The notes under the pieces: generated by a model
The model's database searches: none
Told to the model about the DNA's origin: nothing
The model's input: the letters and a program-made list of their open reading frames with translations, nothing else
Shown here: in pieces, positions 1,919-57,169 of the stretch
Layout: every line of letters starts with the position of its first letter
Numbering within the stretch: position 1 is the first letter of the stretch
Source of the DNA: Phoronis australis
Taxonomy: Eukaryota > Animalia > Phoronida
Assembly: GCA_002633005.1 (NCBI GenBank)
Contig: NMRA01000175.1
Location: 379,831 to 443,830, forward strand
DNA length: 64,000 bases
Direction: 5' to 3'
Made by a program: the position numbers and the translations under genes

Positions 1919-4900
1919 GTAAGCCCAATTGCTTGCTGAAACATGTTCTGGCTCTGTTGTTTGAAACACAGTCGCATAACTACCAAATTACCCCAAATTC
2001 TCTTTAGGAAAGCATGCCTTCCAAGATCGACAATCCTCCAATCATTCTTTCTTTCTTTACCTTTCTTGTAGTGTCCCCTGTTCATTTCTTGACCTTTTAC
2101 CTTTGACTTTTCACAATTTCTTTGCTTGGGTATCCAGCTGTACTGGACAGCATATCTGCGTTGTGGAAGCTAGCAGCGCACTCTTTGGGAATCCTTGCGA
2201 CGGGACTCTAAAATATCTGGAGGTCGAATATCAGTGTATCATAGGTAAGGGGAGGTGTGGCATGATTCGTCTAGCGCTACGGTAAAGTTACCCGAGTTGC
2301 ATGTAGCGAGACGTCGGAGAAAGTTGGCACCCTATTATCGCTGCCCATGAAATTACTAACGCAGAGAAATGTTTGTCCTGTTTAGCTGCTTTGTGATTTA
2401 ACAACTAGATTTTTGGGGTCTGAAGTCAAATAAGCATGTGCTTTCCATGTATCGAAAAGTATTGAATGAAACTGACTTTGTGCATGAGGCTGCATGTCTT
2501 CAAGGGGGCCGTTACATTTTTGTGAAGTTGTAGTTGGTCAATTGGGCATTTTCTTTGTCAAAGTAAGCAAAATATGCCAAGTTGACCAAATAGTCTTAAA
2601 AAAGGTGATGTTCCCCGAAACTATCTTGTTGGTACGTCATTGGTGTGGACTTGAAAAATCTCTATTTAATACCATTTTGACAAAATGTTGTGCATTGTTT
2701 TGTCCCTGTTGCAAGGTTTTTGCACAACTTTGTTAAATCCGATTGTTGCACATTGTATTTTTCATATCAAACATTTAAGAAACAAAAAGTCATGATGAAA
2801 TTTGAGAAAATTTTAGCAGTTTGCAACGTGTTAAAATTCTATCATGTTGCATGAAAACGAGCATTTGATAAAATTATCAACTTTCAGTTTAGTTAATACT
2901 TAAAAATTGTTTTCAGATACGGTATTTTTTCATCAAACTGGCTTGGAAATATCAACCAGAAACACTTTAATTACCTGGTCTGCACGCCACCTGTTGGCCA
3001 CATCATGTGACCCAATACAAGTCTGAAAAGATTTTTGCCCTGACCGGGACTCAAAATCAAGACCTTTGGCTAAACATGCATCTGAAATCTGTATTATTCA
3101 GGTTTCTCTATATGAAAAATCAATCAAAAAGTGCCTCTGGTATCCCGAGACAATTGATCTAAAAATTTTCTTTACTGGACACGGCATGAAGTCCCTGTTG
3201 TAACGCAGAACATCATTGAGCATATACAAGAAGTGACTAAACTCTGAGGAATCACAGGGACGGTCAGCTTTTGTCCTCTTATAAACTTTGCCAGCTCCGT
3301 CACGGCTAGTCTCTCAATTCCTACTGAATGTTGAAACCATTGCTTTCATGCCAACTCCAGTTTGATGGGATTTATTAGCTTATATTTTCTAGATTTAGCA
3401 TTTAAGCAGTCCTTAAAGATGAAGTGCTGCTTTAAGTGATTTTGTGGAAAGTCGTATCAACAAGGTGTGTTTGTGCAGAGGGTCAATTTGATGTTGGCTA
3501 GCTTATATAGTCTAACTAACTAACATGCTGAATATTTTCTTAACTTTCGCTCTTTATGACCACTCTCATTCAAAGCTAACCTAGTTTGTTCATTCTGTGT
3601 ATCAAGTCAGTCAACCATGATGCTTTGTTGTAGTTCAGCAATACTGGCTCAGATTAGTGCATGCTGTTCTGCTACACTGAGTCTAGTGGTTTTGAGAGAT
3701 ATTGCAGTACCTAGTTTAGCTCAACTGACTGTCATAAAATGATACAGGTTTTGCTGAGCCAGATGTCCTTTTCACAATTTAGGTGTTAAGCTGTACTGAC
3801 TCCGATGTAATGAATAGAGTGGGTTGTATTTAACAACACAGAAAGTCATCTTGAGATATTGCAGTAATTCAGCTGTAGTGTCTCAGGTGTGCTGTGCATG
3901 TAGTTCAATGCATGAGGCTCGATCTTTAGCCAGTCTTGCCTGCCTTCTCTCTCTAGGTGCAATGACAAGCTGCAATGTTCCGTTAGGGCTTCTAACACCT
4001 TCCTTAATGGCGATCCGTGCAGAGGCACTCCCAAGTATTTGGAAGTTAGATATAAATGTAAAGCAGGTAAGATTTTAACCAATAAGTTTAATAACTTTCA
4101 TTGATCTTTTCATTTCTCTTTCTACAACATTCTCTCTGGAGTTTTGCTCCCATGAACTAATTTATTTGAATACCAACGTGGATTCACAAAAAGTTCTAAG
4201 TTTTCAGTATTTTCCTCCCCCCGTTGTGGAGCAACTGTCTTCATTAGTATATATGTCTGACTCGAGATGTATTCTTTCTTTTGCCTTGTCTGCTCTGTAT
4301 TAGCATGTAGACAGTAACTGATCTGTAGCATTGACTAATAGCCTGTTTTGTTTTCTTTCTGTGGTTTGAGTTTGTTGCCTTGTGTCAACTGTTCTGCTTT
4401 AATGTAACAGTTGTAATTTTCTTTTGTTACAAAAATTTGTTTCTTAAATTTAAGTCTAGTTTAACGAGTGTATAGTATATTATTCTTCATTTTGAGTTGT
4501 CGTTTTAACAAGACATTTTCAGATTTCCTGTACTCATTAATATTTCTTTGTGATGTATAACATTTCTTCTAGTGACATGTGCATGGAGGGTTCATAAAGA
4601 TTGTCACTTGATTTCATAAAAGCCTTTCTTTTCCACAGTAGACAAAGATAAACCCAAGGGCAAGACCACTTTGTCCATGACAACAGAACTTACAACACTG
4701 CAAATGACAACACCGCAAACGACAACACCGCAAACGACAACACCGCAAACGACAACACCACAAACGACAACACCGCAAACAACAACACCGCAAATGACAA
4801 CACCGCAAACGACAACACCGCAAATGACAACAACACAATTGACTACTGAACAAACTACACAAAAACAAACAACAGCACCTGGTGAGATAACACGATTTCG

Positions 4901-7900
4901 AACGTCATCTACAACACAGCAGGCTGTGGAAGGTTCAACTACAAATGAAAAATCTTCAACAAGGCAAACAACGACATTTGCTACTACATCCTTGCCAATA
5001 GTAACAATGAAACAAATAACTCTCACACAAACAACAACAAAACAAATACCACTGGAGCAAACAACTCAGCAACAAACAACAATGCAACAAACTACAACAC
5101 AACAAGCAACAACAAAACCAGCCATTATAGAACGAACAACAGCGGGAATGACAACAGCAGAACTGATGACTACGGAACAGACGACACCGGGACAGACGAC
5201 AGAGGGACGGATGACAGGGGGACAGACTACAGCTGGACAGATAACAACGGGACAGACTACAGCAGGACAGATGACTGCGGGACAGACTACAGCAGGACAA
5301 ACTACAGCAGGACAGACAACTGCGGGACAGATGACAGCGGGACAGACTACAGTGGGACAGACTTCAGCGGGACAGACTACAGTGGGACAGACTTCAGCGG
5401 GACAGACTACAGCGGGGCAGACAACAGTAGGACAGACTACAGCGGGACAGACGACAGCAGAACAGGCGACAGCGGGACAAGCGACAGCGGTACAGACGAC
5501 AGCGGGACAAATGACAACTACTAAACAGACAGGAGCAGAACAGACAACTGCTGAACATACAACAACAGGACAGACAACAGCAGAGCATTCAACAGCAGAA
5601 CAGACAACAGTGGGACATACAGGTGCTGAACATACAACAGGAGGACATGTAACTTATGAACAGATGACAACACAACAGATGACAACACAACAGATGACAA
5701 CACAACAGATGACAACACAACAGATGACAACACAACAGATGACAACACAACAGATGACAACACAACAGATGACAACACAACAGACTACTGTAGAACATAT
5801 AGCTTCTGAACAAACAACTGGAGGACATATAACTACTGAACAGGCAACAGTCAAACAGATGACAACCGAACAGACTACAGCAGAGCAGTTGACAACTGAA
5901 AAGAAGACGTCAGAACTTACAACAATGGAACAAACAATAGAACAGTCTACAACAGAACTGACAACTGCTGAACAAACAACAGAACAAACAACAGAACAAG
6001 CAACAGAACAAACAACTGTACAGACCAGAGCAGAACTGACAACTCCTGGAATGACAACTACTGAACAAACAACAGAACCGCCAGTCCAAAAAACAACAAT
6101 TAGACAAACAAGCGAACTAACAATGACACAACAGTCAACTACAAAACCTACAGCCAGTGCACTTAATACAACTTCTGAACAAACAACACAGGCGTTAATG
6201 GGGACATCAATGCATCAACAGTTAACAACCACCAAGCTTACAACAATGCTATCTACAGCAACAGCATCAACACTTGAGCCAACAGCAGAATTGGCAACAA
6301 CAACAACCACAGAATCAACATCCAGTGCAATGCTAAATATATCGGCAGAAATCACCACAAATCCACAAACAACAGATGAGTACCTGACAACCAGCTCTGT
6401 TGCCATGGATACGTCACCCATGACGACTGTCAGTAGTAAGTGTATTCAGCCCACCGCAAGCAGTCCTACCAACAACAGAGCAGTTACCGTTGCTTATTAT
6501 CTGGCTGATTTCCTACATGCGAAATACGTAGAGTAATGTGTCAAGTTTAAAGTAAATTGTTAATGTTGAGGATTTGGTGGACTCAACAGAATGTTCTTTA
6601 ACTTTTTTGCTGTTTTTTCATGATGACTCTTAAGAATTAAATGTGACATGTCATTGTTGGTCTGCTCAACCAAGAGAAAATTATCAGCTCTACAGCTCGG
6701 TCGAAACCTTGGTGGAAAATGCTAGTTACATATTACTTGACAGGTGACTCTACTTGTTCTCTTGTTGGATTTGAGATGTTTCAAGATGCTTTTCCACACT
6801 TTTGTTGACTGGAAATTGCCAGTTGCCTTCAAATAACACACTTTCACCTTTGGCTTCTGTCATACTCCGATGAAAATTTCGAGAAGCTTAACGCGTTGCT
6901 TGTTAAATGTTTTTGTTACGTTCTGCTTTTTTGTTTTCATACTTTGAAATTTTTGTAAACTTCTACACTTGCTTTACGTGATCTCACATGCCAAAGTTGA
7001 AAGGTTGAAGGTCTGATCCTTGTTCAGTTGTTGTTTCTTATTAATTACCTTTTTATTGAATTTTACCGGAAAATTACCAGACTTGTGCAGAAAATGACAT
7101 TATGGTAATTAGCGTAATTAGCACCATATTGGTGAATGTTAATGGCAATGGCACAATGGCAGGAAAATTCAGTAGATTGGTCTGACTCAGCAACTGAAGC
7201 CGGTTATCTGCTCATAGCTCCCACCATAGAATTACCTCCATCCACAGTCGTTGTTGGTGTTTGAGAGGGAAGGACCCTTGGTTAGGACACAGGTCTTTTA
7301 AGTGCTGATGAACACCATTTTCATTTTTGTTTTTAAACAACCATTTAATTGCCATATCCATAATTACTGTCTAATAATTCTCAATTGTGGTTTGAACTGT
7401 GAATGTCCATTTACTATCTTCTTTCTTTTTCTTGAGAAATAAGGTTCATAAAATGTGATACGAGAAAGGTTTAAAATGATAAAATACGACAAAACATGCT
7501 GAATGGTGTTCATATGTTCTTAAAAGAAATGTTGCAAATGCTTATCTTTGCTTGTTTGTTGTCTTTTTAACACAGAATTATTTCAGGAAAATATTCAGGA
7601 ATTAGAATATTAATTGAAATTATTCAAGTGTTATTTAAAAGTGGATTGTAATTGAAAATCATTGATGTGATAATAGTCAAGTGAATGAAAATGATTGAAT
7701 TGTTAAATACTTGACTATGGATTAACATATGTCTATTGGGTGACTGCTAGAGAAAGCTCAATTTTTTAGCATTGATATAGCACACTTCGTTATTTAGTGT
7801 AGACAATTGGTTCTCATAATTCATCACCGATGTAACTGACCTGGTATTACCAGTGTTGATTCACACCGAATTGAAAATTTTCGACAAACAGCGGTCCATA

Positions 7901-16900: not shown

Positions 16901-19900
16901 CATTTAAAAGTCGGCCGGTCATATTTTACGGAATTATGTTGAATCTTTGAAATTTTATCGTATGGTTCTGTGGTGTTCATGCGAGTTGTCTGGTGATTCT
17001 TTTTAGGTGTCCCTGCAGTGATAGTAGCGCTCTCTGCTGGCATTAGTTATGGTATCGGACAACCAGGATATGGGACAGATAAGCAGTGCGTAATGAGTGT
17101 CAGAGACGTATTAATTAGTACTTAGTTTTTGCTGATAAACCACTTGCACCATAAACTCTTGAAAGAAGGAATGTAATACATTCCTGTTTATGAGGTGGTA
17201 AACTGAAGTAAAATGAGTTTGAGATTGTCAACTTGAAAACGTTTTCACAAAAAAATGTCAATATTCATCTGATATTCTTCGTTTATTGTGTCAAAAAGTT
17301 GTGAATAAGTGCATATATTAAAGTGGCAAAAACCCGCACTCCATCAAGGAAATTAAATTGGATTTTGATAACGTACTGCTATGAAATTGGTCTAAACTTG
17401 TTCCTCACTTGGATGAGAAGTTTTTTGTTTTGTCTTGCAAAGAAGTTGCATTTTGTTGTTCTCGAGACCACGCTCTGTGAATAAAAGGTTGCGCCATGAG
17501 AAGTCAACTTGTAGAGACTGTTCTTGAGCATTAACAGTCTGGCAATTCGTTTCAAGCTCGGAAATCTTAACGTATTTTGGCATAGGAACAATTGGTGATG
17601 AATTTCACAACGATAAGTAGTCCAAATCAAAAAATCGTTTTTTGTGATGGTAGGTGGGTTTATAGTTGCTTAGACTAATTTGACCAATGTACGTTATAGC
17701 TAATTAGTTTAACTTTTTTCATAGTTGCTGGCTGAGGGTTGACAATGGCTTCATCTGGAGTTTCGTTGGCCCTGTTGCCGTGGTAATTACCATTAACATC
17801 ATTATGCTGAGCATCGCCATTTACATGATGTGCAAGCACGCCAACTCATCAGCTGCTAGGTCCAAGGACAAGTCAAGGTCAAATAACATGAAGTAAGTTT
17901 ACTATTCATATGTTACAAAATGTCAATTTCAATCTTTCTTTTAAGTAGATGTTTGTATTTTGTGCTTTTTCAAACATGAAGACTTTCAGGTTCATAACAT
18001 TGTCAATAGAGGTTAAATTGAATTTGTCGTACCGATAAATTATGTTTCTTGTTCGCAACTTAATCGTAACCTCTTTGTCTGTCAGATTTTTTTGAAGTCC
18101 TGCTTTGACAATGATGAGAAGGGATGGTTTGTCCGAACAGCAAACATTCCTAATGGCTTCTAGTTTTCTCAAAAGTTGATACTTTGTGACTTTTGAAATT
18201 TGGTTTAGACGGTAGTCTTGCAGTTTTTGTAATTTATTGTCTGTTTTGTCTCAAGACCAGAGTCTTGTGACCAATCGTGCTCTAAGCGTGATGACAAGAG
18301 TGGTGAGAACACAGCCAATGGCTCGGCCAATCAGTAAGCATCAATGTTGTGAATGCATGCTGTTCCATTGTTTCTTATTGGATGATTGCTTCTGGAGTTC
18401 TGCTGTTGTTCTTTTGATATTGCCATGTGTGCTGTTAGCATTTAATTTAGTTTTTTAATGCCAAATAAGTATCTAGATTGACAGTTGCCACATTATCCCA
18501 CTGAGAACACATAAAATGCACTAATTGAAGCACTGCTCCTTAGTTTGCTAAATCGAGCACTGGGGTATCTGAAGTTATGGTTTTGATGTGTTCCTTTGTG
18601 TTAATGCATGGTGTTGACATTCACCTTCTTACTATTACATGTTGTAGCTTCATATGCCACCACCTGAACAAATTTCACAGAATTCATACTAAAAGTGTTA
18701 TTTTATAGCGATTGGAGTTAGTTGATAGGTTGAGTGACCTTATTGTGGTAAAAAATGGGGGTTACTTATAGAACATGTGGGACCATTAAGTACTCTGTGA
18801 TAATCGAGATCATTTCTAGGAGCAGAGGAAGAAGAGGACGAATTTTATACTCTCATAGGGTCCAATATTATTATTAAGATTCTGCGTTGATATTGATTTG
18901 TGATTTTCTAGTTGCCGCTGTGGTTTCATCTTTTTATTTTTTATTCTTTGTTGTGAGTTGATGCTTTCCGTTATTAGTTTCAACACGGTAACGAAAGTTA
19001 CAGAATGGAACTTGTTGACATCATGTTATATTTGTAAATATGTCTTAGCTTCATCCTTAAAAGTAGATAATTTGCTAACTTTATTCATTCTGTAAGTACC
19101 GTAGTAAATTTGTCTTCTGAATTCTCCTAATAATTGTTTCTTTTCACTTAAAGTATTCTTTTGCTGATATCTGTTATAGAGCTGATGAAGAATACTCTTC
19201 TGTGTTTGAAGATACAAACACAGAGTTCTCTGGCTATCAGCCGGGATATAAAGGTCCATACGTTGTCTCTGGTGATGCTGATAATTTCTGGAACTTCAGT
19301 AATTGCCCAGAAGGGCGTGCCTCAGCACCGTAAGCTTGGGTGGTGGGAACGCCATCTGTTGTGTATTTGGCATTGGATTATTTCCTCCTATTTGCTTAGT
19401 TTGTTTTGTATATACCACCTACAGAACTGTGCTTTCGAGTCTAGTGATGTTTTAGGACCTTGCCGACCTCTATCTGTGCTTAAGCAAATCAATGAGGATT
19501 TGTGTTCAGCGGTCACTTGTTGAAGTATTTCATATTGCAAGGTTTCCTCCTGGTTTCGGGTTTACAATTGATTCTGGATTTGTTTACTCGTGTAAAAATT
19601 AAATGTAATGTACTCTGAGAATTCCAAGCATGTTGTTGTCGTATAAGTGGTTGATTGATTGATTGATATAGTAAGACGTAGGCATAGAGGCTTTAAATTT
19701 GAGTGTGATGTCTGAAAATCTAAAAGAGGGCCGGTACCACTCAGAAAATCGTGGTTGGATATCATAATGCTCATTCATAGCTATCCCTCTGAGCTGTGTT
19801 GGTTTGCCTAAAGGTTGTCTGGTCTTAATCTGTGTGTACTGCTTCAATTTGTCTACCGTACCCCCTGGTTGGAGAGAACTGGCATGGGTCTTGTTTGAGT

Positions 19901-22900
19901 GAGCTGTGTTCAGACTTACACTTTCACTGGCATCGTTTGAAATGGTTGAGAAAATGACGTGGAATAGAGATGGAAATGATACTCTGATTTTTGATCAACA
20001 TACTGATAATCTTGCTGTTGATGCAGTTCAGGCATTGATTCGCCTGCAATTATCTTTATCTTAGTAAGAATATTCATGACTCTTCCTTCTCAAAAATATG
20101 TTTTTCTCATACTGTCATTAATAGCTTTCCAGTACAAAGATGCCTTTTTTCTGCAATCATAGCAGTTAGATGACTCACCACAAATTAAATAAATGGTGAA
20201 TTTACATTTGGGCAACCCTTCAGATTTGTTATTGAAACTTAATTAATTAGTTTATTTAATATCAATATCTTGGCATCTGTATTAATTGGCTTGATGCTGA
20301 AATAACAGCCTAATACTCCTAGTTGAGCCTAACGTATGAAGAGGCATGTAAACGTGTTCTCTGCAGCAGAGAGCTAGTTGAACAAAAGTTTGTGATTCAT
20401 TCAAGTACGAATTTTACTTTCTAGAACATCGCATCCTGTTTCTGACTCTGTAGCGATTGGAGATCTCAAGGATCGTCCAGTACCTTCTGCTGAAAAGAGC
20501 AAAAGATCTGTGACGTTTAGTGCTCCGTAAGACCGGTTGTTGTTCTTGTTGTTGTCTGGTCTTTTGGTGGTGTTGGCCATTAGCATGCTTTGTTGGGATG
20601 AGAGTCGGATCATGGTTTCATTTCCATCTGTGTCATTGGATGACCGTGCTTACAGTTTTGTATTTTTGAAGTTTTTCATTTCAGCTGGCTACATTGCGAC
20701 CGCATACAGCTCCTAATTCCACACTTGCTTTTCGTATTCACTTTCTTTCTAGATTGCTGTATCTGTACACTAGTTTGTTCTGGATCAATTAAGATTTTTT
20801 TCAATTTGGTGAAGCACTTTTTGAAATTTTCTCGACTTAATTAGTTTCAATTCTGCAGTACAACACATTCACAAATCACGTTAGGATGGGCCGTGGTGAT
20901 AGCATGCTTTCTTGAGCTGTGAAGCATGTTGGTGCAGGCATAGAAACACAATGGGTGTTTTTTTTTTAAAAACGCATGTAAAGTTTGCTGCCAGAGTCAA
21001 CTTTCTGACTTTCCATTCCTTTCAGTAGTGTCAATTTTTGATACTAGTCTATAATGTAGGCTAAATCATCTACAGTACTGCATTAAAAATCATGGAGATC
21101 AGGTGCCATCCTGCAGGCGTGTAATACTATCATCAAGTGAATACTCTTCAAAACTTGACTTTTATGTAGGGTGCATGATATCCCCAAGTAAGGTGTTTTT
21201 GTGAAGCGCAGTGGAGCTTCTGCATAGTTCTTTCCATATCAGAATGAAGAGTGTTTACTGGCCGTTTTTTCATATACATTGAATTCTTGGTGAAAACTCG
21301 CCACTTGCGTACAAAAATAATAGCCAAAATTGCCATTATCATTTTTCGACTGAAGGTCTAACATTTTTGTGAAGGACAATGTTTTTACAAAATATTTCCT
21401 CATAGTAGCTATGTTACAGAACTTCAACACGGTAAAGCATTGAATGGTGCTATGCATCTATTATGAAGAATGAGAAGATTAAAGTATCAATTCTCCTCCA
21501 TGTTGTGTTCTAAATTGATGAGATTTCTACACACAACCTCTCATGATTACAATGAGCTTATCAGTTGGTCTGGCTGAATTTATTCAAGCCTTTCAGAGTG
21601 CAAAATGATAATGTCAACCTGAGAGCTTCCTCAAAAACTGTGATGCATAGGGTCTATGGCAAAGGAACCGTTAAACGAGAATGCCACCCGATTTCATTAG
21701 TCTTTTTTGCAGTCTTAATCGGTCTATATCCACTTCACCTCGCATACGGTCGACCTTACCTTGCCAAGAGGTGTCGCGTTAACCTGTGAGGAAGGTGAGA
21801 AACGACGCTAGCGACGTCAGTGGTTCATATGCAGAGTGAATGCCGCTATGTTGCGGTGCATCGTTCCCGCTTGTCCGAACTAAGCAGCTGCGAGGAAAGC
21901 GGGTATTTCGTTTTTTTTTTTTTACTTCCTCGACAGTCCGAAATGCTTAGGAAGTGGCTCATGGTAGTGAAAAATGAAATGTACGCTGTAAATAGCAAGT
22001 ATGAGGCCGTGAAACATCTCCGNTTACATGGAAGTTTTATGATTTATTGGTGTTAAACGATGACTTCAAGCGATAAGCTGACACCAGTAACCCTTGTTGT
22101 GAACTGCTGAACAGACTGCGTGTGAAACCGATGACGTCATTGGATAATTTCAACACCTCCGTCTGCCGTCAGGTGTCAGGTAACGCAACCGTACGTGTCG
22201 TTATGGAGTAGAACTACTCGATCTAAATTGATACTAATTAGGTTGCTTTTTGGGTGGCATGCTCCTTTAATGGGGTCAGCTCAGTCGTGTGTTTGACTTC
22301 AGTATCATGTTGCTTGGTCTGTTACAGTAGTGGTGAGAGTGGGGACTCTACTGATGTGACTGGAAAGACTAGTAAAAGCAGCAGCAGTAGCAGTAAGAAG
22401 CAGAGTACGCCACCTAGTGTCATCATGTAAGACCATGTTTACTGCAATAGGGGGTATTACTGCATTGTAATGAATTGCTTATGGTGTACAAAAAGTTATG
22501 TGGTCTGTCGATGTGATGATATGAATGTGTCATTAGTGTTGTGCTACAAGGTTGCGGATGTGTTCCATAGAGCAGTGCATTTTTTAGTTTGGAGAATATA
22601 GGCACTTAAGTTGTGCTCAGAGGCAGATGGGAGTCATTTCCAGCACCTACCGTAAAAGTGCTTGATTTTATTGTTGTAAGAATGTCTCAATTAGACTATC
22701 TTGTCATCTAAGCTAGGCCACATTTACATGTATTATTAATATCACTCCTCGTGCTTTGATGGATTAATCTTGTGATTTCAAAAAACTGCTAGAGTGCTGT
22801 CAAAAACACTAGTATTAAAGAATGTTCAACATCGGCTTGAGCCCATTACTTAAAACTGACAATTTTCAAAATTTGAAGTTCCTGTTTCTATTGAAAAAAT

Positions 22901-25900
22901 ATATTAGCAAACGTTTGTTATCTGTTTTGGGAGAATCGCCCTGTATTATGTTGTATATTGCAAATGTATTGTATTGTATTGTTTCAGGGCTTGGGTGAAA
23001 GGAGCTCTGGTCTTGGTAGTTCTTCTTGGACTGACGTGGGCCTTTGGCTTGCTGTTCATTAGTGAAGAGACATTGGTCATGGCGTATGTGTTCACTGTGT
23101 TGAACAGCTTCCAAGGATTGTTCATATTCATCTTCCACTGTCTTATGAATGAAAAGGTGAGCTTGTCATTTATGATGACTTGTGTGGTCACAGATTGAAA
23201 AAAATTCATATGCATGTTCAGATTCAGGGAATTTCATCAGTGTGATGGCTGTTGTGTTTATAGTATTGATCAATTTTCCTGAAATTGAACACTATAGACT
23301 TCCACCCTTTTTGTGGTGACATGCATGTTTTTATTCATCAATAGATTATGGAACAGCTTTCACTGGTTTAATAAGGGTAAGGGTTCTGCTTATACAAGTA
23401 CATCTTGTATGCATTGAACAGTGTCTATTACTATGGTTGTCCCCTACATTTCCATTCTCTAGTTCATACTTTTAAAGTAAAAGATCTCGACTATGCATCC
23501 TGTCATCAGGGGTAGTCTTCCTCACTGCCTCAAGAATTGCTTCTAACATTCCTTCCCATTCTTAGGTTCAGAAGGAGTACAAGAAGTGTGTCCGGCGCTC
23601 CGCCTGGTGCCCCATGTGTATCCGTGTCCACTATGGTGGCCACAAGGGGGCGTACCATGTGTCTACCTCTCCAACACCTTCCAGCACTTCGGGCAATGTA
23701 AGTCGTTAAACAAAACTTCCTTCTTTCAGAATAAAATTTCTTGAGTTCAAAATAAGATTTCTGCTATGACGTTATTGCGTTTTTTTACTGTGGACTTTCT
23801 TAATTTGTTAGCTGATGTGTTTATTTTTGTGATTATTTTTGCTTTTGTTTTTATTCATTATAATTGTTGTATTTCTAGAAAATTCATTCAACAAAAAATG
23901 CTATTCAGTTGAAGGTAAAGAATTAGCATCTTGATTTACCTAAAGTGCATGCGTTATAGAAAGATTCCGTCGTGTGTTACTAGAGCACTTTATTTTTGTA
24001 CAGACTTCTCTTGACTCACTCGCGCCCTGTTTTATGGAGAATTTTATCTGTTGAGTGGTTCTTCTGAAATACTGCAACTCGCAAGTTCCCATGTTTTACT
24101 ATTTGCCTCAATTCAAAGGCATGTACAGTACCGTCTTTAAAAGCCTCTGCTTTGGTGTGTAAGTTACCTTAAGTTTCAGGGGTTTTGTTGTGGTGGTAAA
24201 GTGTTCTCAGCCCAATTTTATCCGATTATTTTATCAATGATTCTCCATCTAAATTTGCTGTCACAGTAAACTTGATGGCAGTATTTTAGTTTTTTCACTT
24301 TGAAGTAGTCCTACTGTGACCTACTTATAGCTGCACGTGGCTTCAAGGAAGTCTTCTGTGGTATTAAGAAAAATACAAAATCTCATTGAGAGTTGAACAA
24401 AATTTTGGATAAAAAAGCTTTGGTTGGTTCAATAATTCACTCATTAACTTCAGCACAACTAGACGTCTTCGGTCAAATTTTGTCACTCCCTTTGAAAATT
24501 GGGCATTTTGCTGTTGAATAGAGCAGTTACGCAATACACTCAGTTTCTTGCTTGCACCACCCACTATAGCTATTTACATTGTTCCCCTCCAACTGACAGT
24601 TCATCCGAGTAGCCAGTTGCATGAAACAGTCCTAAATAGAGACTCGACTTAATGTTCCTTAACTTTTCATCGCATATTTGGATTTGAACTTTCGCATGCT
24701 ATTTTGTCTGCATTACCAAGTCAATTTTTTGCTTTGATACACGAGAGAAAACTCTGGGTTGAATTTTCAGTGTTGTTGAACATAAAGAGATCTTTTAATG
24801 AGCTTTCCTAAACTTAGGACTAAGTCCCAGTTTGGTTTTATTGAAATTAGGGTTCTATTTTTGGATATAATGAAATAAAGGCTTAAAATGAGTAAAAGAG
24901 GAATTGATAGAAAACCGTAACAGTTATGAGTAAACAAAGACACAAATGCCCAAAAGATATAGTGAACTTGGGTGAGTCCTTGTTTAAGACAGATTCGTGC
25001 AAACAGGCACTGTTGTGTAACCAATTCTCATTGAAGACATGTATTGCTATACAGTTGGCATAACTCTCTGAGTTGTATCATCATGGACTTGCATATTGTT
25101 TAGGTTCTGTTGCGCATGACACTCTGTCTGATGCAAACTATTTAGAAATATTTTATTTGGTAGTGTCTTGTTGGCTGGAAATTCTTTGAAGAAAATATTG
25201 GGTATACACAAGATTGGTGTATGTTTGTACTGAACTAGATTCATCTGTCCTCATTTTTGTAGGCTTCGTTCGGTATTATCATTTTCCTTCTCTGTTTTTG
25301 GACTCTTTTCCATAGAAACCATACAAGAATGAATGATTTAGAATCGATGTAATTTTTATGAAAATTCTGTCTCTCCAATTTTTGGACACTGTCCTTATCA
25401 GAATTTATTTCAGAAAATGGATTGAAAAGAATGGTCTTGTTGCAGCGTTATATTTTCGGCAATATTAATTCACATTTTTACTGACCAAATGTTGCTTCAA
25501 AATATCAGTCAGGAATCAATATTTCAGACATGTAAAAAGTTAAATTTTCAATGCCTAATAATTACAGTCGAAAGTCTTTGTGCTTATGTTTCGATCATCT
25601 CAAAAATTGAGTGCATTTTGGGTACATGTGCTTATTACAGTTAGTTAACAGTGTCTTATGGACATGGAACATTTGTTGGTTAAATGTGCAGCATCCACCT
25701 GGTGGTGAATTTTGCTTGCATGGATGTCCTTGCATGGTGAAGGCCCCTTTACGCCTGCTTAAGGTTCTGTTCCTGCTGATGATAGCTTCACAACTTTAAG
25801 TATTGTTTGACAAGTATTGAAGAATTTTTACTAAAATCTAGGCTTGCAACTACCTTATTTCTTCATTTTGTGAAATTTGAGTTTGAAATGCACAGCTTAC

Positions 25901-28900
25901 TTCTCGTCACATTGGTTGAAATGAATGGAAAGTCAGTGCTTCTTTCAAACGGATTTTGTGAAAAGCTTTGACTGCACCTACTGATTTTTGTATTCAATTT
26001 TATATTTGAATACGACAGTCGCTACCATTGTCCTCACACTGCAAATGCTGTTGCATTCACTGGTGAAAAATCAGAGCATTCATGGATGGCCTCAGTGCCA
26101 GTGTTGCTGTTGTATCTTGTGAACCATTTACACCATTTCTGTAGGCCTTGTGTTTTAAAATAACATGCATTAATTGGCCAGTTACATCGTTAACTTTTTT
26201 CTTAAATGGCTTCATTTAAATGCTCTCGTGATTACTATGAAATAAGAAAAAATGTGGATCACCGACTAAATAAAATGCGCCAATTTCAAGATCTCCATTT
26301 CCCCCAATGTATGCTACGAGATAGTGATTAACGTTGTGTTGTTGGAATTGTGACAAAAGTTTTGTGGGTGTGAATACACTGAAGTGAAGTGAATCATTCG
26401 TTAGTAAATTCAATATTACCCTCTAACCCAAATTCAGTCGCGTAATATCTACACTCGTGTTTATGCCTATTCCCATGTTTAATATGACGTCGTTTGGAAA
26501 TGTGATGCCCTATGCTATTATTTAATGCCTTGTTAACAAAAGCTCAATGCAAAATCAACATTTTTCAATCAGATCTCTGTAATACTATAACTTTGTGGGT
26601 TTGTGGCAACTGGGATGAATTGCATCAAGGTTAACGTCAAAGAAAAGAAAAGTGAAACTCTTGTTCTTTCTTCAGAAAGTTTTGCTTAGCTCTGAAGTAG
26701 GCTTAGGATTGCTTTAAATTTTTGCATGGGTACCTCACACTGTATTTAGTAGTTTCCTGGTATTATCTTTTAGCTTAGAAAATAACTTTTCTTTAATATG
26801 TAGTGAGCACATGCACTTCTGTTTAGCTTGAAGCCTGTAACTTATTACGTTATGATCCCCTACGCTGTGTGTATATGTACAGGTACAGAAAGTCCAATAT
26901 GGGACCATTTTGTTTTTTGTATTGAATCAGACATCCAGTGTTAACCAGTCTGGCAAAGAAATAGAAATTAATTGTACACTTCGCTTCTTCTGTGAATTAC
27001 AATTATTATCATGGGGGCTATGAATATTTGAATTCATTCCAAGTAATTATGGTGTCACAAATAATTGTATTTGGTAAACTGTCCACATTTTACTGTTAAG
27101 AAAATGCTCTAAAATGATTACCGTACGACCAGAGCCGACTACCACCAAAGCCGCTGTAACAATTGCCTTTGACTTGCTGTGTCAACGTTGAATTCCTATT
27201 TGTGAATGATTTACTTTCCCTGTCATTATATTTACAAATCTAATGAATCCCATCATCCTTTTCATGGTATAGCGCTGTACATCTCGCCAGTTAACAGGTA
27301 CAGTTTGTAGTGGTGTTGTTTTACAGTGCACAATTTCCGTCACTCACAATAGAGGGCAGCTTTGTTACCAGCTACTAGTAGTTTGGTACTGACATCTTTT
27401 GGCCAGCTCTTACAGTTATGTAGAACCCTTGGAAAATGTGGAAATTTGGCCAACTTTGGAACCTCAATTCCCATAAATGCTTTATGCACTATTCTCCAAA
27501 ACGCCGGTTGGAATTGTTTTTAGAATGTACTACTTTTGCACGAAGGCCTATCAAAAATAGGACTTTTATGATTTTCTTGGAAAAAATAAAAAATGTATGT
27601 AACAAAAACGAATTGGTATACTAGAAAATACCACTTTTGACCATTTACATCAAAGGGAATTTGGTCATTTTATTGATTATGTTTATGGTATAAATGTACC
27701 TTTCGTTTTTCTAAATTTTACTAATAAAAAGACGTAGTCACATGACTCAGTTAATGACACTGTTGCATAAAATTTAAAATCAAAGTCTACAGGATTTCCA
27801 CTTTCAGGAAATTCATTCTTTTATTTTGTTAATTTTGATAGATTTGTATTTATTCGGCTAAATGCACACATGTCCATTAGGTCCTACATAACTAACACTG
27901 GATAGTGGCAGCCTAATACTTCATAGGTCAATCTCCAATGAATGCAGCTGATGTCAAAGTTAAACTACGTATTAAAGTGGGAAGCAATTGTTTTTATGTT
28001 ACATTTTCCTAAAATTAAAACCCCTGGTTATCTAGGACACATATTTTGCAACTGTAATTACTGTTTCCTTAGCCCTTTACAACTATGCCTGCTACAACAG
28101 AAAGTGACATAAATGGGTCAGCAAAGAGAGTATATCATGTGACTTCACTCACTTCTATTGAGCAAACCACAATGAGCCAATCACTATTGAACAGTCTGTT
28201 CCGGCCATTGTGTTTTCCCAATGTGGACACCAAATGCAGCATGCCATTTACATCACTTGAAATTGTCGCATTTATAGTTGCAGAAGGTATTGGAAACGGT
28301 GATAAATACTGAAAATATCTTCCAAGGTAACCAGAGATTTTTATCATAAAAGTAGCATCTAAAACAGTTGCATAGCCCCTAAAAATCTATTTAGTTGGCT
28401 ACAGTGCATAATTGTGATTATGTGCATTAAGATAGCTCTTTATTTGCTTCTTGCCATGTAACTAAATAGTGGAGATAAAGAGGGAATAGCAATATCAACA
28501 AAATGGCCATTACAAGTTTCGGACATTGCGACGCGTGTCACCTGAAACTTATTGATTTTAAAAATTTGTCTCAACATGTTGGCTAAAAAGCGAAAAATCA
28601 AATTTGGCATTCTACTCTCATTTAGTCAGTCTTGTAATATTTCTTACTGTGATAAGATTTTAATTTTTATTGCTAACAAGAATATCGAAACCATCAGCAA
28701 TTAAAAAAAAGCTTAAGAGTTTATTGGGGTTGGCCAACCTTAAAGTTGCAAATTCGAAGAAAGGCGCATCTAAGCATTGCCAGGGGCTTGAGTTGGCAAT
28801 AGAAATGCAACACCATCATGATGGTAAAGAATATTATCAGATTTGACGAAAGAGGACTAATTAAATTTTTGTTTTTATCCAACTAAATAGTATTTTGACT

Positions 28901-31900
28901 TTATTCATGGAAAAATGTTTGTTTCAGTTAAATTTCACAACACAAAAAATATTTCTATCACACAAGCCTATTCATTGTTGGAACGATACTTCACCTGGAA
29001 AATTTTTCCCTTTTTTGTAATTGGTCATTCCAAGCCCTGGTTGCTTGTGTTGACTCAACACTTGTAGTTTTGGTGAATTGGTGTGGCCCTTTGTTGCTGG
29101 TATACCCTCTTGTTCTGTATCTAAGAAAATTCCATTTGTTTTTAAAGGTTTGAAATCAAAGTATTTTTGAAGGATTTATCTTTTAAAATGCTGAAAGGAT
29201 TTTAAGCACTTTGCGTAACCCAGTGCCCGTTTCAAATATTCTGTAGCATGTAAGGGGTCTGAAAAGTCTGCATTCACCATGGGCTTTTGCGGGAATGTGT
29301 GCTTTTGTAAGCTTAATATTTAATGATTCTTTAACGATAGTGGGCATTTTAACTTATAGTGTCGGCTTCTTCAGTGTTTTTGTCATCTAACATTCAGTAA
29401 TTCATAATTTTTATGTCACTAAGTGGTGGAGTTTTTCAACAATAACGGAACCCCAAACAGTTTAGAGGTGGCAACTTGTTCTTTGTAACATTTGGTCATT
29501 AGTATTTCTGTTGCTTGTTTAACGTGTAAAGACTGTAATCATTTTAACCACAGTTTCTGGGCATTGCTGTTCACTGTTGCAATGACAGTGTCACGGCATC
29601 TCCCTGTGCTGGATACTCCAGAATTTCTCTCTAACTTCTCACCCAATGCAGTGCACGGTTCCTTCAACTTAGGTTAGGGTGTCGGTGTGAGACTGTATTT
29701 AGGCAATTCATGTCCTTAAAGACTGCAGGCCCCTTAAATAGAATGCCAGTTGAAATGCAGCATTGTGGGAAATGATAATAAAAGTCATAATCTAAACATT
29801 ATCTCTTTGTGCTATGTCCAGATCATTGTACAAATTTTTTGCAATATGCTAAAATCTCACAAATTTAGGACAGAATATGGCAGCCAAGTGAAATATTTAT
29901 ATCTTATCATTTTTCATGAGATATAAGTAGCACAAAATAAAGGCTAGGCAAGGTTTAACTTGTATTACTATAGCTACTGTGGGAATTAACGTTACAAGCT
30001 TTTGAAAAATGAAAAAGTCAATTTTGTCAATTCTTTTTGTCTCAAATTAGTGCGATTTTATGACACTGAACAGCGAGGACAGCTTGATACATAGGTTGTA
30101 AACCACAGTTGAATGTGTGTGAAGTCCTGCTTCTTGCTGATGCTCTTAGTTGTATTGCATTAGTAGTAACAGTACTTTCTTTTTCCTTCCAGTACTTTCA
30201 ACGCCTGTGGAGCGGTCGGAAGAGAAAAAAGTCAGCACGCGGTCAAGTGCAACTGCATCCGAAATGTAAGTGAAGGACACATGGACTGCTGTTATGACCG
30301 TTGTGGTTCTGTACGGTAATGTGTGAATGGGTAACGGGGGTGTAGTTTTGCTGGGTGAGGTGTGACTGCAGTGATGAAGAATGAACACCTCCTGAAATAC
30401 CACAGAGCCACTGTGGCATTTACCCACAATGCCGCTCATCTGCAAGGCACTGCTTAGATCATTTAATGCTGTGCTCTTTTGCCATGCTAATAGCTATTTC
30501 AATTTGTCATTCTTTAGTTTGATACCAGGAAGTTGGTACTGACAAAGACAGTGAGTTACACAAGTTTGACATTCTGGGTGGGTCACGGTAAACGGAATGT
30601 CTTGTTATGTTAGGGATGAATTTGTTCCATTGTGTAGAATACACGTTTTGAATAAAAAGCATGATGAGAATTGTATAAATTAAGGCTTTTGCAAGTCTTG
30701 CCTGTTGACAAAATGAGTACAGTAAAGTTTCTTCAAATCAGAACACAATATGGCAGATCAGAAAATTTTATTTCATTCAAATTCTCAACAAGAGAAAACA
30801 AGAAAACAATACTCGGTTATTTGAAAACTTTGTTCAGAGTGTGATTGTCTTCAACAAACACAATGAAATTTTGAACTTTTTTGGCAATGCAGTAAGAGTT
30901 TGAAGAATGAAAAAGTGACAAATTTGGCCACTACTTTTTTTAGAATTTCAGGAAACTTGCTGTAACTTTTGATTTAGACCAATTTTTGGTCTCGACCTGT
31001 TTGTTATTCGGATTGGAAATTATCTCTGGACTTAAGAAGAATTGCCTGATTTTTATTGCTTGAGGCCATGTTCAGCACATAAAGGGACCCATCAGGTCAA
31101 GCAAAGTTATCAACCCTGGTCTCCAACAATGACAAGTGGTCTGTTCTTTCCAAGCCCAGTAGCCACTTCTAGTCAGAGCAAAGCCACTCTGGCACTTGCC
31201 GTTGAACGTAAATCATCGTGGTAATGATTAAACTCCTCGCGAGCAAAAGTGAAATGTCTGTGAACTGTCAGGGAGTGTGAGTTTTGTTGACAAAGAATTT
31301 TGAAATGTTTAAGGATTTTAACACACTTTCATTTACAAGAATAAATTGTAAACTGGACATCTGCTCAGAACTACGGACATTGTTTGTCAATCTCTGCCAT
31401 GGTTTATGTCCTTTCATTTATGGGGGTGTGCTTATTACATAACCTCATTTATGTATGTCACAGCGTGCCATTGTGGCCAATTTCTGTCATGAACAGTGCG
31501 TAAATTATTGTTGAAAATTGTGCAATTTCAGCAAAAATAAAGCAGAAATTGGAACCTGCCAAAATAGCACATTTTGTCACAACAAATTGCAAACCAGCGC
31601 ATGTCACAAACTTGTGCAAGTGTCAGGTTGGCTCAAAGAAAAAGTTGAGACCAGGACCCAGATCTCTGAACTCAGAATCGACTCAGACTCCAGACTTTTA
31701 CATGCTGGACGATTCAAGTACAAATCTTTGTGTTCACTAAAAGTATGCGATGCAGTTGGTCAATTTCTGAGACAAGTTTTGAGTACAAATATTTAGACTC
31801 AAGGCCCAGTATTATCTAAGGTAAGTGGTCTCAAGCAGGTTTTCCCACAAGGTGGGTGGATAACACATTTAGACCATTCCGTGCATCTTAATGGTTATTG

Positions 31901-53447: not shown

Positions 53448-56400
53448 TTTTTTTTTCATTTGTATTTTTTTATTGGTATACACAACAGAAATACAGATAT
53501 GTAAGACAAAAATCAAGCCATTCTCACTCTTAACATACACGCCACACGCACCCGCCCCCGCCCCCCACCTACTTTTAATAGGATGTTGCCAGGCAAAATT
53601 TATGGTGAACCAGTTTCTCCAGGTTTCATGTTATTCATCTAAATTACCATTATTTAATAAAATCCTTTGAATGTAAAATTCTGTTTCTAATGTCTTAAGG
53701 AAATGACAGAAACTGGGGATTATTTTTTTACACCTGAATAGGTAAATAAAATGTTTTAATTGCAAAAGTATCCAATTTAAAACTTTATTTTCATCACTTA
53801 TGGGCATGCCAAAAAAACATTGTTTTTTGTCAATAACCATATTTATACCTTTCACCAACAACACCCAACTGCGTAATTCTATCAATGTTTTTATATTATT
53901 GCATTCGAAAAAGATGTGATCTACTGTTTCACTTTTTGAATGACAGAAAGTACATACATCAGAGTCTATCAGGTTAATTTTTTTAAGAAAATAGTTCGTT
54001 ACAAGTATTCTTTGTAATAGTTTAAACTGCAGTATACATAACTTGAAATCATAAGTAGTTTTAAAAGACAGTGAATATAATTTTTTCCAGTCATCACTTT
54101 GAAAGTTATAACCTTCTTCTTGAAATCTTTTTTGGGCAATAGGCAAAATTTTGTTGTGGCAGACAGTTTCATATATCATTTTACATATTGATGTGCAGTT
54201 TAAAAAATTACGGTTATTAAGAGGTATTATTGGTCTATGTATCTTAATTATTTTGTAATGGTGTTCTCAGAAACGGCCTAATAAACTCAATCAGAGAACA
54301 ATATTCCAAAAAGTTTGTAGGTATATTCGAGATCTTTTTAAATTCAGTAAATGAGTAAAAACTTATTTTCATCAAGTAGGTCATTAATAAAAAGAACACC
54401 ACAACTAGCATACTTGTTAAAGAAGATAGATTTTCTGTGTATTAGTATTTCATCGTTATGCATAAACCTGTTGAGAGTAAATCATTCGCATCTTTATGAG
54501 GCTGTTTACTAATGAAAAAGACCAGTTACTTAGAACTTCGTTCCAAAAGGGATTGATTACTTCAGTATAGTATTTAACAAAAATATTTCCAAAATTTATA
54601 ATATTTGACTTTGCAATCCCTGTTTCAAGTTCAAACAATTTCACCCATTTTGATTCAGAATTAAGTAATCTGTTTATCCATGAAATTTTTATAGCCTTGT
54701 TAAAAAGAATATTTAACATTTTAACTACCTCTTCCTCATAAGTTTTAATTAACACACCTCTCTTCACTCTCTCAACTTTGTTATTCCAAATAAACTTAAA
54801 AATGCTTGCATTCAATTCATTCATAATAATGTCTGATGGAGTAAGCAGGGTTGTCATAATGTGAATAATTTTTGGCACTATCAAGGTCTTCCCCACCGTA
54901 ACTTTCCCAAAAAAGGAGATTTTTCTTCTAGGCCAAATCTTGATAAGGTTATTGATTTCATCAACCCTCTCATTGTGGTTGATGTCAATCATTTTTTTTC
55001 TAGGTTAACACTAAACTTGATACCAAGCATCTTAAATTCCGTTATGCCCCATTCCAACTTCCACCTTGCGTGATGGAAAACATCTTTACAAAAATTTTTA
55101 CTGCCCAACCAAATAACATTAGTTTTGGAATAATTTACTCTCAAACCAGACATATCTGGATATCTACTCAAAACGTCCATAATAGCTTCCAAACTACGCC
55201 TTGAACCATCTAAGAAAAACGTTGTGTCATCAGCATACTGAGTAAGTATAAATTCCTCATTTCCTATTTGAATGCCTTTAATTTCCCTATCTTCTTTTGT
55301 CATCATAGCTAATATTTCAGCACATAAAATAAAAACATACGGAGAAAGAGGATCACCTTGTCTACAGCCCCTGTGCAGAGTAAAATGTCTGGACAGGAAA
55401 CCGTTTTGAACAATGTATGACACGGGACAATTAAAAAAGGTTTTAATCCAGCGCTGAATTGAGGCCTTGAAATTAAAAATATCCAAATCATTATTTATGA
55501 AGTTCCATGACAAGCTATCAAAAGCTTTTTCAAAATCTATTTGTAATAACAGCCCTGGTATACCATTTATTTCACAGAAATTCATAATGTCAAAGGTCAA
55601 TCTTATGTTTTTACCCATACATCTCCCTTTTATAAATCCCGTGTGATCCAGGGAAATTATATATCCAAGTAACTTTTTATTCGTCTAGCAATGCATCCGG
55701 ATGCCAACTTGTAAACACTGTTGAGCAAAGTTATTGGTCTCTAGTTTTTTATGAATTTTTTAGCTTAATCTGGCTTTGGAATTAAAGTTACGACCCCAGT
55801 TTTTTGCGTGTTTGACAATTCACTTTTTTCATAGCTTTCATTTATGTGTCGTGAAACAAAATAGTCTAAATCTTTCCTGAAAAACTTGAAGAATTCATTT
55901 GTGAAACCATCTGACCCGGGGCTTTTTTCATTTTTTGAATTTTTCAATACAGTCCAGAGTTCATCATATGTTATATGTCCCTCAAGCTCCATAGCAAAAT
56001 TATCGGGAAGCTTATTTGAAACAATAAGGTTTTCTATTTTACTTTTTTCAATAGAACTGTTGTCAGAATAAACTTTTTCGTAAAAATTTGCGACCACGTC
56101 TAGTATCTTTTCTTGATTTGTAATCATTCCACCATTTTCCAATTCTATTTCATACATAAGTTTGTTATAAAAATGTCTCGATTCTAAGCTCCAAAAATTT
56201 TTTTTGGGTGTTCCCCCTCCTCTATCCATTTTGCCCTGGATCTGACGTAATTTCTCTGACCTAATCTCTAGAAGAGCACTCTTTTTCCTTTCTAAGTCTT
56301 CAAAAGTTGTATCATCAACACATGGTTCTAAATTTTCTATTTCCTTCTCTAACTTAGTCTCTTGACTGTCTAATTTTTTCTTTTTTTGAATTGAGTAAAA

Positions 56401-57140
56401 AGTCGTGTTTTTTTCTTATTTCCATTAACAGCACGTCCAAAAGTAGCTGATCATTTATAACAAACTGAATCTCACTGTTTGAAATATTTTGAATTTTGTC
56501 TAAATGATGCATGTAAATCGTGACGGCATTAGGCTTTTAACATCAGTTATTGTATCTTGAACGATGTCCACATAGTCCTTGTCATTTAAAAGTGAATTGT
56601 TAAATTTCCAGTGTCCCTTACCTCTAATAATTTCTCTAAATTTTAGGCTTAACAAGACCCAAGAATGATCTGATCTATAGCTTGGAGCTATAGAAATTCT
56701 TTGGACACAATGCATCAAAGTTTTGGAAACCAAAAAAAGTCAAGCCTAGCCTGCTTAATTGGATTTTTTCTTCGCCAAGTGAATCTTCTCTTTGAAGGAG
56801 AAAATTCTCGTAAGGGATCACAGACATCAAACGTATTATTTTCATAAGAAATTTTGTACCATTTGGATTATTGCAAGATCTATAATTGCAAGTAACCAGT
56901 TCTTGACTCAGAACTAAATTAAAATCTCCACATAAAATCAACTTATCGACATCAATTTCTTCAATTATTGAAAATATATTACTATAAAAATTCGGGTTAT
57001 CAGTATTTGGACTGTACAAATTTACTAGAATGATCCTCTCTCCCTCCATAATTAGTTCTATAATAACATAATTTCCCGTAGGATCCTTGCTCACATTTTG
57101 AACAGTAAACTCAAAGTTATTGTTAAATAGAATAGCTACT
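53448..57140 (-). mobile_element. Degenerate L1/Tx1-clade LINE ORF2 (APE endonuclease - RT - zf-RVT)
   Basis: ILCGDFN, SDH..V, WKFNNSLL, KSPGSDG, DFEKAFD, RGCRQGDPLSP, QYADD, CTFC..ETVDHIFFEC; AATAAA plus A-rich tail on minus strand at ~53448-53475; many frameshifts. Confidence 0.93.
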
Positions 57141-57169
57141 CGTTTGATTTTGTTTACGAGTCAGTCAAC

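Follow-up and report, generated by a model that had tools for sequence, protein, structure and literature searches.

Can the third intracellular loop (ICL3) of one receptor be built in several versions from short exons that lie within a single intron? The question is raised by a 64-kb stretch of Phoronis australis DNA (the window, to which all positions refer), in which the 5.1-kb intron between the TM5 and TM6 exons of a receptor gene had been predicted to hold four cassette exons.

The host gene is, judged by its sequence, a lophotrochozoan-type latrophilin (ADGRL/Cirl adhesion GPCR). Pfam searches with the exon pieces gave the domain order SUEL lectin, HRM, GAIN/GPS and secretin-type 7TM, with matches to the C-terminal half of SUEL (three), HRM, GAIN, GPS and 7tm_2 (three); the GAIN match, scored as a fragment, reached 23.8 bits, below the cut-off of 26.5. 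No N-terminal half of the SUEL lectin was found within the 64-kb window, and a layout with three whole lectin domains was dropped, as only C-terminal halves are present there. A Thr-rich open reading frame of 638 aa lies between lectin and HRM. The closest protein matches (66-79% identity) carry ADGRL/Cirl names, the protein searches found no relative more than 79% identical over a TM exon, and the latrophilin C-tail is conserved, with matches to E=5e-17. Among latrophilins, the olfactomedin domain is known from vertebrate members only; most of the invertebrate matches to the host receptor do not have it among their listed domains. A tree of 36 hand-picked proteins placed the receptor among lophotrochozoan sequences with support below 50, so the phylum is not assignable from the tree. 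Two exons on the forward strand flank the intron: 17725..17892, covering the end of ECL2, TM5 and the first part of ICL3 up to a phase-2 donor (Pfam 7tm_2 profile positions 149-199), and 22988..23156, covering TM6-TM7 (profile positions 203-250). A loose-end contig joins the TM5 exon to its upstream exon.

Recomputation reproduced the four segments, here called A-D, in every detail: each is bounded by AG...GTAAG, a multiple of 3 in length, phase 2-2 and stop-free, and all 16 combinations of joins stay open, adding 0-143 aa. All lie on the forward strand. Candidate exon A (18256-18333, 78 nt), recognised by frame and splice signals, would encode 26 aa; candidate B (19180-19329, 150 nt) would encode 50 acidic and aromatic-containing aa; candidate C (20425-20526, 102 nt) would encode 34 aa with an RVxF-like stretch; and exon D (22328-22426, 99 nt) encodes 33 aa, 16 of them Ser or Thr. 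B and C both finish in Ser-Ala-Pro, through different codons. The RVxF-like stretch of C, which we take to be a possible phosphatase docking motif, recurs in a single one of 89 distinct loops of relatives and is too rare to be called conserved. A TGCATG, presumably an Rbfox site, stands 21 nt past the end of A; it was given no weight, as TGCATG is not enriched in the 64-kb window (49 vs 48.6 expected). The segment pattern moderately exceeds chance. GTAAG occurs 10 times in the interior of the intron vs 3.5 expected, the remaining non-coding DNA of the gene (17.4 kb) having 12 occurrences (rate test, p=0.015). A frame-compatible, stop-free segment preceded by pyrimidines accompanies 5 of the 10 donors; among 36 donor-by-phase controls, 4 have one (p=0.015), A-C having been chosen after inspection of the intron.

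RNA was available from four runs under the label of the source species, tissue unspecified. Reads were taken from three runs (X2-X4; 18-19% of each, giving a coverage of 10-20 reads per run) and contigs from the fourth (X1; 0.13 of words present), and splice joints were listed at a threshold of three reads. D is spliced at both ends (GT..AG), at precisely the positions predicted from sequence. The joint from the TM5 exon to D (17892>22328) was supported by 30 reads (14, 13 and 3 over the three runs) and that from D to the TM6 exon (22426>22988) by 33 (10, 7 and 16), each with a contig in the fourth run. These counts approximate exon depth (44 at 17794, 27 at 23049), and in these runs D is the insert that ICL3 carries by default. 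As the TM5 exon is joined directly to D, the fallback of the original prediction, that all four segments are constitutive, is refuted. No joint skipping D (17892>22988) was listed at the three-read threshold in the four runs of unspecified tissue; D can thus be called at most a putative cassette in the source species. In X4, the joints into and out of D had 3 and 11 read starts, respectively (p=0.057, not significant).

The boundary check that confirmed D in four runs gave nothing for the other three segments: no splice joint entering or leaving A, B or C was listed in the portions read of these runs of unspecified tissue or among the X1 contigs. RNA depth over A-C (mean 4.4, summed) lies within that of the other intron bins (3.5, sd 2.2), 4 of 66 reads over A-C fit only partly, and A-C jointly account for at most about 6% of transcripts (upper bound about 14%) in the samples examined. 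All four X2 reads crossing the donor of C are unspliced by bin arithmetic. Two X4 reads that lie wholly within 20416-20464 (74 bases) might enter C by its acceptor; they were left uncounted, as only one X4 read fitted partly. A single one of 26 listed variant places falls within A-C, too few for a constraint test; this is an Ala>Glu change at 20454 within C, carried by six of six covering reads. The up to 16 ICL3 forms of the original prediction are therefore unsupported in these samples, whose listed joints run from the TM5 exon through D to the TM6 exon alone.

A non-autonomous DNA transposon of about 592 nt (21671..22270, strand unassigned) lies 57 nt upstream of D. Each end carries TTAA, the 15-nt inverted ends match at 13 of 15 positions, and depth over the element is in the hundreds. 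An empty-site joint (21670>22267) in an X1 contig and four X4 reads shows that the element is missing from some haplotypes. Its right end reads AGGRR, and the left end deviates at two places. The available text of PMC6004289 gives a TTAA target and an AGGRR terminus for T2/Kolobok elements; by its TTAA target duplication and AGGRR terminus, the element would be classed as a T2-type MITE of Kolobok kind.

How, then, are A-C to be read? With confidence slightly above even, we favour an intron that holds the spliced exon D and three exon-like segments, at least one of them likely a minor, tissue-restricted cassette, in a loop whose length and Ser/Thr content would likely act as a gate. The strongest competitor, which we consider somewhat unlikely, takes D as the sole exon and A-C as intronic look-alikes or decayed exons, leaving an ordinary single ICL3 insert such as molluscs and insects have, perhaps constitutive. 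The RNA results agree with it, as A-C have no listed junction and background depth; but with samples of unspecified tissue at this coverage, a neural exon could be missed. Donors 19092 and 20064 also pass the frame filter of the original prediction, which is therefore not exclusive, yet their coding scores are intron-like, and frame-compatible donors remain enriched when D is left out (4 of 9 vs 4 of 36 donor-by-phase controls, p=0.039). The acceptor of A is a weak AAG whose competing AGs would yield frameshifting segments of 73 or 71 nt. The coding score of A, however, is 0.40 bits per codon, above 444 of 444 intronic controls, and that of B (0.14) exceeds 441 of 444, where the controls overlap one another and the score partly reflects GC; none of four matched candidates in 17.4 kb of other introns scored positive. 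A, B and D are coding-like by this score. C (-0.04) was equalled or surpassed by 52 of 444 controls, from which it is indistinct, and is the weakest candidate.

The peptide searches gave no help to the exon reading of A-C. No homologue of A-D was found in 357 proteins with phmmer (one match at E=0.23), and a large protein search with B gave one candidate but no hit; a Pfam scan of B, C and D was blank. The insert peptides appear to be disordered. In alignments to 41 and 10 inserts of relatives, for which p-values are nominal only, the lowest shuffle p was 0.007-0.05 among 41 comparisons per peptide, and D aligned to mollusc inserts at p 0.05-0.12, which is not significant. Among relatives, 13 of 20 insert-bearing latrophilin clusters have exactly two loop forms, as expected if D were a single insert, but three-piece loops are annotated in the nemertean Lineus. 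On balance A-C look like real exons; if used, they would be at most rare or tissue-restricted.

Public gene models suggest that the site itself is widespread. Both a short (19-23 aa) and a longer ICL3 occur in 20 of 30 latrophilin clusters, and three or more forms in 7 of 30; an insert slot appears in models of molluscs, nemerteans, echinoderms, hemichordates and insects, and two fish clusters have an 18-aa loop alone among the members listed. In the 18 mollusc sequences picked, the long loop spans 42-50 aa, with one exception of 74 aa, and 17 of the 18 inserts end in Pro immediately before the TM6 exon. The residue at the junction changes from K to N or from R to S in Lineus, Tubulanus, Liolophura, Mizuhopecten, Anoplophora and Ptychodera, as would be expected of a phase-2 split inferred from proteins. 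Lineus longissimus ADGRL-like RefSeq models X1-X11 (P0017, P0081-P0090) combine pieces of 23, 40 and 21 aa in five ways to loops of 22-106 aa. Two Lineus pieces match pieces of Tubulanus polymorphus (p=0.002 and 0.010, among six comparisons). The slot thus appears to be old and optional in many bilaterians, with loop peptides that seem to turn over fast. A bolder version, which we hold to be unlikely, would make this ancient phase-2 slot a bilaterian-wide loop-length switch (from about 20 to more than 40 aa) with freely replaced peptides. In the present lineage four independent modules, A-D, would have arisen in it, and their combination by particular cell types would set how the loop is phosphorylated, the G-protein bias and perhaps the docking of a phosphatase through the RVxF-like motif of C.

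It is less probable again that A-C are real but substitute for D, with one insert per loop and about five loop forms in place of 16. The Ser-Ala-Pro ends of B and C, like the Pro ends of the mollusc inserts, look as if built to abut TM6, and models X1-X10 of Tubulanus have 50-aa and 91-aa loops with unrelated inserts, none of the listed forms carrying both. Yet A-D show no mutual similarity (six of six pairs p>0.6; lengths 78-150 nt) and are therefore not tandem duplicates; the similarity and like length of a mutually exclusive duplicated exon cluster were not found among them. With a spacing of about 1-2 kb and the frame kept in all joins, nothing forces exclusion, and the Lineus pieces are additive across models. 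Long-range inverted repeats around C or around A-D were marginal (p=0.13, 0.14 and 0.04) and were set aside, three of seven control stretches scoring higher. The strongest form of the prediction, with all four exons in common use, whether combined freely or constitutive, and a loop that could reach 164 aa, is highly improbable: the joins are all open and the 106-aa form is the commonest Lineus form (7 of 11 listed models), but the TM5 exon is joined directly to D in four of four runs and the share of A-C is small.

Alternative exons at ICL3 are known from vertebrate Lphn2/3, as the original prediction had correctly stated (Adgrl3 exon 24, Adgrl2 exon 23; available text of PMC10830413 and PMC13108381). 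The same texts give 15 aa for Adgrl2 E23 and describe the E24-containing form of Lphn3 as the most abundant in mouse hippocampus, much as the D form prevails here; E24 of mouse Lphn3 (Adgrl3) shifts coupling between Gs and G12/13 (PMC10830413, available text). The mouse genes share with the present gene an in-frame latrophilin ICL3 exon, but have one short exon with a measured Gs vs G12/13 effect, whereas D is 33 aa long and Ser/Thr-rich, is accompanied by three further candidates and was not seen to be skipped at the three-read threshold. Lineus is the closest by identity (71% over 299 aligned positions). It shares with Tubulanus and the source species the slot before the TM6 tryptophan and several hydrophilic pieces, but the nemertean pieces have no significant similarity to A-D, and its longest form is the commonest in predicted models while one piece was seen in the source species. 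Bivalve, gastropod and beetle models have a single optional insert, which lengthens a loop of 20-23 aa to 35-50 aa (for example Mizuhopecten P0048/P0163, Mytilus P0057/P0179, Anoplophora P0211/P0064); the mollusc inserts are often Ser/Thr-rich (14-42%) like D, but end in Pro, which D does not. In other adhesion GPCR subfamilies, BAI3/ADGRB and GPR124, ICL3 is described as the sole 7TM part whose length is varied by splicing, and the available text of PMC6667449 describes no multi-cassette array.

Under the favoured reading, with D spliced and A-C as minor exon-like segments, D lengthens ICL3 from 21 to 54 residues, D may be skipped in some cells, and one or more of A-C would be likely to serve as minor, tissue-restricted cassettes. 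Loop length and the Ser/Thr run of D would likely gate G-protein choice and the access of kinases and arrestins. GPCR ICL3s longer than about 45 aa gate G-protein selectivity according to the available text of PMC10033409, which counts loop lengths by a convention other than ours.

That ICL3 is a splice hotspot in latrophilins was already known; the window adds such an exon in a lophotrochozoan latrophilin, supported by RNA reads. The locus probably represents this known hotspot, possibly expanded, with D demonstrated and A-C probable. Calling it a much expanded vertebrate hotspot, as was first proposed, understates how widespread the slot is: short and long loops occur, apparently at a single site, across molluscs, nemerteans, echinoderms, hemichordates and beetles. 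We found no open-access paper on this invertebrate breadth, though it is visible in RefSeq models, and nothing on ICL3 splicing in the available text of bioRxiv 10.1101/2023.01.11.521585 or PMC13197933. If A-C are real, the set of ICL3 modules would be larger than in any of the 30 clusters examined. If it is loop length and not loop sequence that is conserved, these natural pairs of receptors would offer a ready test, in adhesion GPCRs, of the ICL3 gating rule of about 45 aa set out in the available text of PMC10033409.

Pfam matched exon pieces of the latrophilin gene to SUEL lectin, HRM, GAIN, GPS and 7tm_2; TM5 of its secretin-type 7TM domain derives from exon 17725-17892 and TM6-7 from exon 22988-23156. 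In a homology search its C-tail matched latrophilin tails. The TM2-3 exon matched 76 of 111 candidates, headed by Capitella (79%) and followed by molluscs, Owenia, Lingula and nemerteans; no closer relative was found among the 50% representatives searched. A tree of 36 picked proteins (299 positions) placed the gene among lophotrochozoan latrophilins with support below 50. Between the lectin and HRM exons lies a 638-aa Thr/Gln-rich repetitive ORF, a mucin-like stalk (4620-6536, forward strand); if included, this predicted stalk would make the receptor far longer than most relatives (1100-1300 aa). The long C-tail region (23700-31890) displays a single short homologous exon near 30190 and, by analogy with vertebrate latrophilins, may hide alternative tail exons. 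Three tandem forward-strand exons (1809-1918, 110 nt; 2138-2244, 107 nt; 3957-4066, 110 nt) are each 3n+2 in length, entered in phase 2 and left in phase 1. Every one codes for a C-terminal SUEL lectin half, and no N-half lies between them. They are likely mutually exclusive, because any two joined would shift the frame. Of 11 clusters checked, 7 (Lineus, Lingula, Liolophura, Mytilus, Ruditapes, Acanthaster and Anoplophora) list isoforms that swap this half.

The TM5-TM6 intron, at intracellular loop 3 (ICL3), contains four candidate exons, A (18256-18333), B (19180-19329), C (20425-20526) and D (22328-22426). Analysis confirmed the original prediction of four AG...GTAAG segments (78, 150, 102 and 99 nt), all 3n, phase 2-2 and without a stop at any join; the frame stays open in all 16 combinations. 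Counted from the first residue past TM5 up to the last residue ahead of the TM6 exon, ICL3 comprises 21 aa without inserts, 54 aa with D and 164 aa with all four.

To this region (17600-23300) we aligned four RNA runs carrying a single species label: one as contigs, and three stranded runs from one study as raw reads, sampled at 18-19% each. Joints were reported from three reads and two starts upwards. D is a real exon with ends exactly as predicted, because both its joints were found in RNA at these ends. Joint 17892>22328 had 14, 13 and 3 reads in the three runs plus a contig, and joint 22426>22988 had 10, 7 and 16 reads with a contig spanning the whole 99 nt. These were the only GT..AG joints found between candidate and flanking exons; their totals (30 and 33) are near the exon depth (44 and 27). 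The acceptor of D is a tandem NAGNAG (22325-22330), whose first AG is used in the listed reads. A high-copy T2/Kolobok-like MITE with TTAA ends (21671-22270) stops 57 nt upstream of this acceptor, and some haplotypes lack it. Elsewhere, a chain of broken ORFs (53631-57160, reverse strand) reads, by eye, like a non-LTR retrotransposon endonuclease and reverse transcriptase.

At the same threshold, neither a joint of A, B or C nor one skipping D was detected in the four runs over 17600-23300, and no contig covered A-C. At the predicted boundaries, spliced reads were found for D and, down to this threshold, not for A, B and C. A separate alignment to 18176-20574 without the flanking exons, where junction reads would appear as partly fitting, gave 66 reads, 4 of them partly fitting, with no joints or loose ends. 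Summed depth was 4.4 in A-C bins versus 3.5 (sd 2.2) in other bins.

A codon score trained on 860 codons (tblastn-supported plus last exon) versus 17.4 kb of other non-coding stretches of the gene gave 0.40, 0.14, -0.04 and 0.36 bits per codon for A, B, C and D, and 0.22 and 0.09 for the flanking exons, both part of the training set. The controls were 444 open AG..GT segments from introns, which overlap one another and average -0.23; none scored as high as A or D, 3 as high as B and 52 as high as C. The score is partly GC-driven, and A-C were chosen post hoc. The intron has 10 GTAAG sites where 3.5 would be expected, a 2.9-fold higher density (p=0.015 by rate test), and 5 of 10 donors are frame-compatible vs 4 of 36 controls (p=0.015; excluding D, 4 of 9, p=0.039). 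Donors at 19092 and 20064 also satisfy the frame filter, with codon scores of -0.22 to -0.33; the GT at 19092 is missing from a contig. The acceptor of A is AAG, and rival acceptors nearby would shift the frame. We consider B probably a used exon, lean slightly towards the same for A, and regard C as marginally doubtful.

Predicted models of relatives were surveyed in 30 latrophilin clusters chosen for multiple members, with up to 15 members taken from each. Short (19-23 aa) and longer loops occur together in at least 20 of 30, three or more forms in at least 7, and a single form in 10, among the members listed. In Lineus models, three pieces (23, 40 and 21 aa) are variously combined into five loops (106, 85, 83, 43 and 22 aa); predicted loops measure 91, 50 and 22 aa in Tubulanus, 74 and 22 aa in Liolophura, 42-48 and 20-23 aa in bivalves and gastropods, 36-53, 29-30 and 19-20 aa in echinoderms and hemichordates, and 35-37 and 22 aa in beetles. 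The insert lies ahead of the TM6 tryptophan in every case surveyed, and several short/long pairs change the junction residue from K to N or R to S, which would fit a phase-2 split. In 6 comparisons, two pieces from Lineus resembled ones from Tubulanus (p=0.002 and 0.010), the multi-piece inserts belonging to nemertean protein clusters P0017 and P0022. These genera suit tests of combinatorial loops better than the Phoronis window. Cross-species peptide conservation of A-D was not seen: similarity to the surveyed inserts nowhere went beyond nominal p-values, and neither protein searches nor insert alignments revealed a homologue.

The vertebrate ADGRL2/3 precedent was borne out by the literature. 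When mouse Lphn3 exon 24 (E24), which codes for part of ICL3, is left out, coupling moves away from Gs towards G12/13, and the corresponding site of Lphn2 is spliced too (PMC10830413); Adgrl2 exon 23 adds 15 aa within ICL3 (PMC13108381), and a review mentions ICL3 splicing of Lphn2 and 3 (PMC6629964). Splicing also alters ICL3 length in BAI3 and GPR124 (PMC6667449), and about 45 aa is a proposed threshold for gating G-protein selectivity (PMC10033409). The literature searches, judged mostly by titles and abstract openings, listed no published account of invertebrate latrophilin ICL3 splicing. The splice hotspot itself is already known, and is apparently very old.

Of the predicted four-module loop, the hidden exon D was correct, and A, B and C found no support in the RNA examined; four-module use is unlikely. 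With D shown in the mRNA, we slightly favour a reading in which its length and Ser/Thr content shape coupling, and in which D skipping or cell-specific addition of A-C would retune it. That D alone is an exon agrees with its joints being the only ones found, is at odds with the codon scores of A and B, and is rather unlikely. Replacement of D by A, B or C, one at a time, is improbable. The strong form of four-exon use is very improbable: constitutive inclusion is refuted by the direct 17892>22328 joint, A-C forms would make up about 6% of the transcripts, with an upper bound near 14%, if all 4 partly fitting reads are junctions and detectability is equal, and common free combination was not seen in the runs examined, whose depth could miss a neural or stage-specific exon.

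Ser/Thr phosphorylation clusters in GPCR loops give access to kinases and arrestin. D lengthens the loop by 33 residues, of which 16 are Ser/Thr; it would offer such a cluster and may carry ICL3 past the proposed length at which weakly coupled G proteins are screened out. Leaving out D, or including A-C in certain cells, would then retune coupling of the Phoronis latrophilin, as exon choice does at mouse E24.
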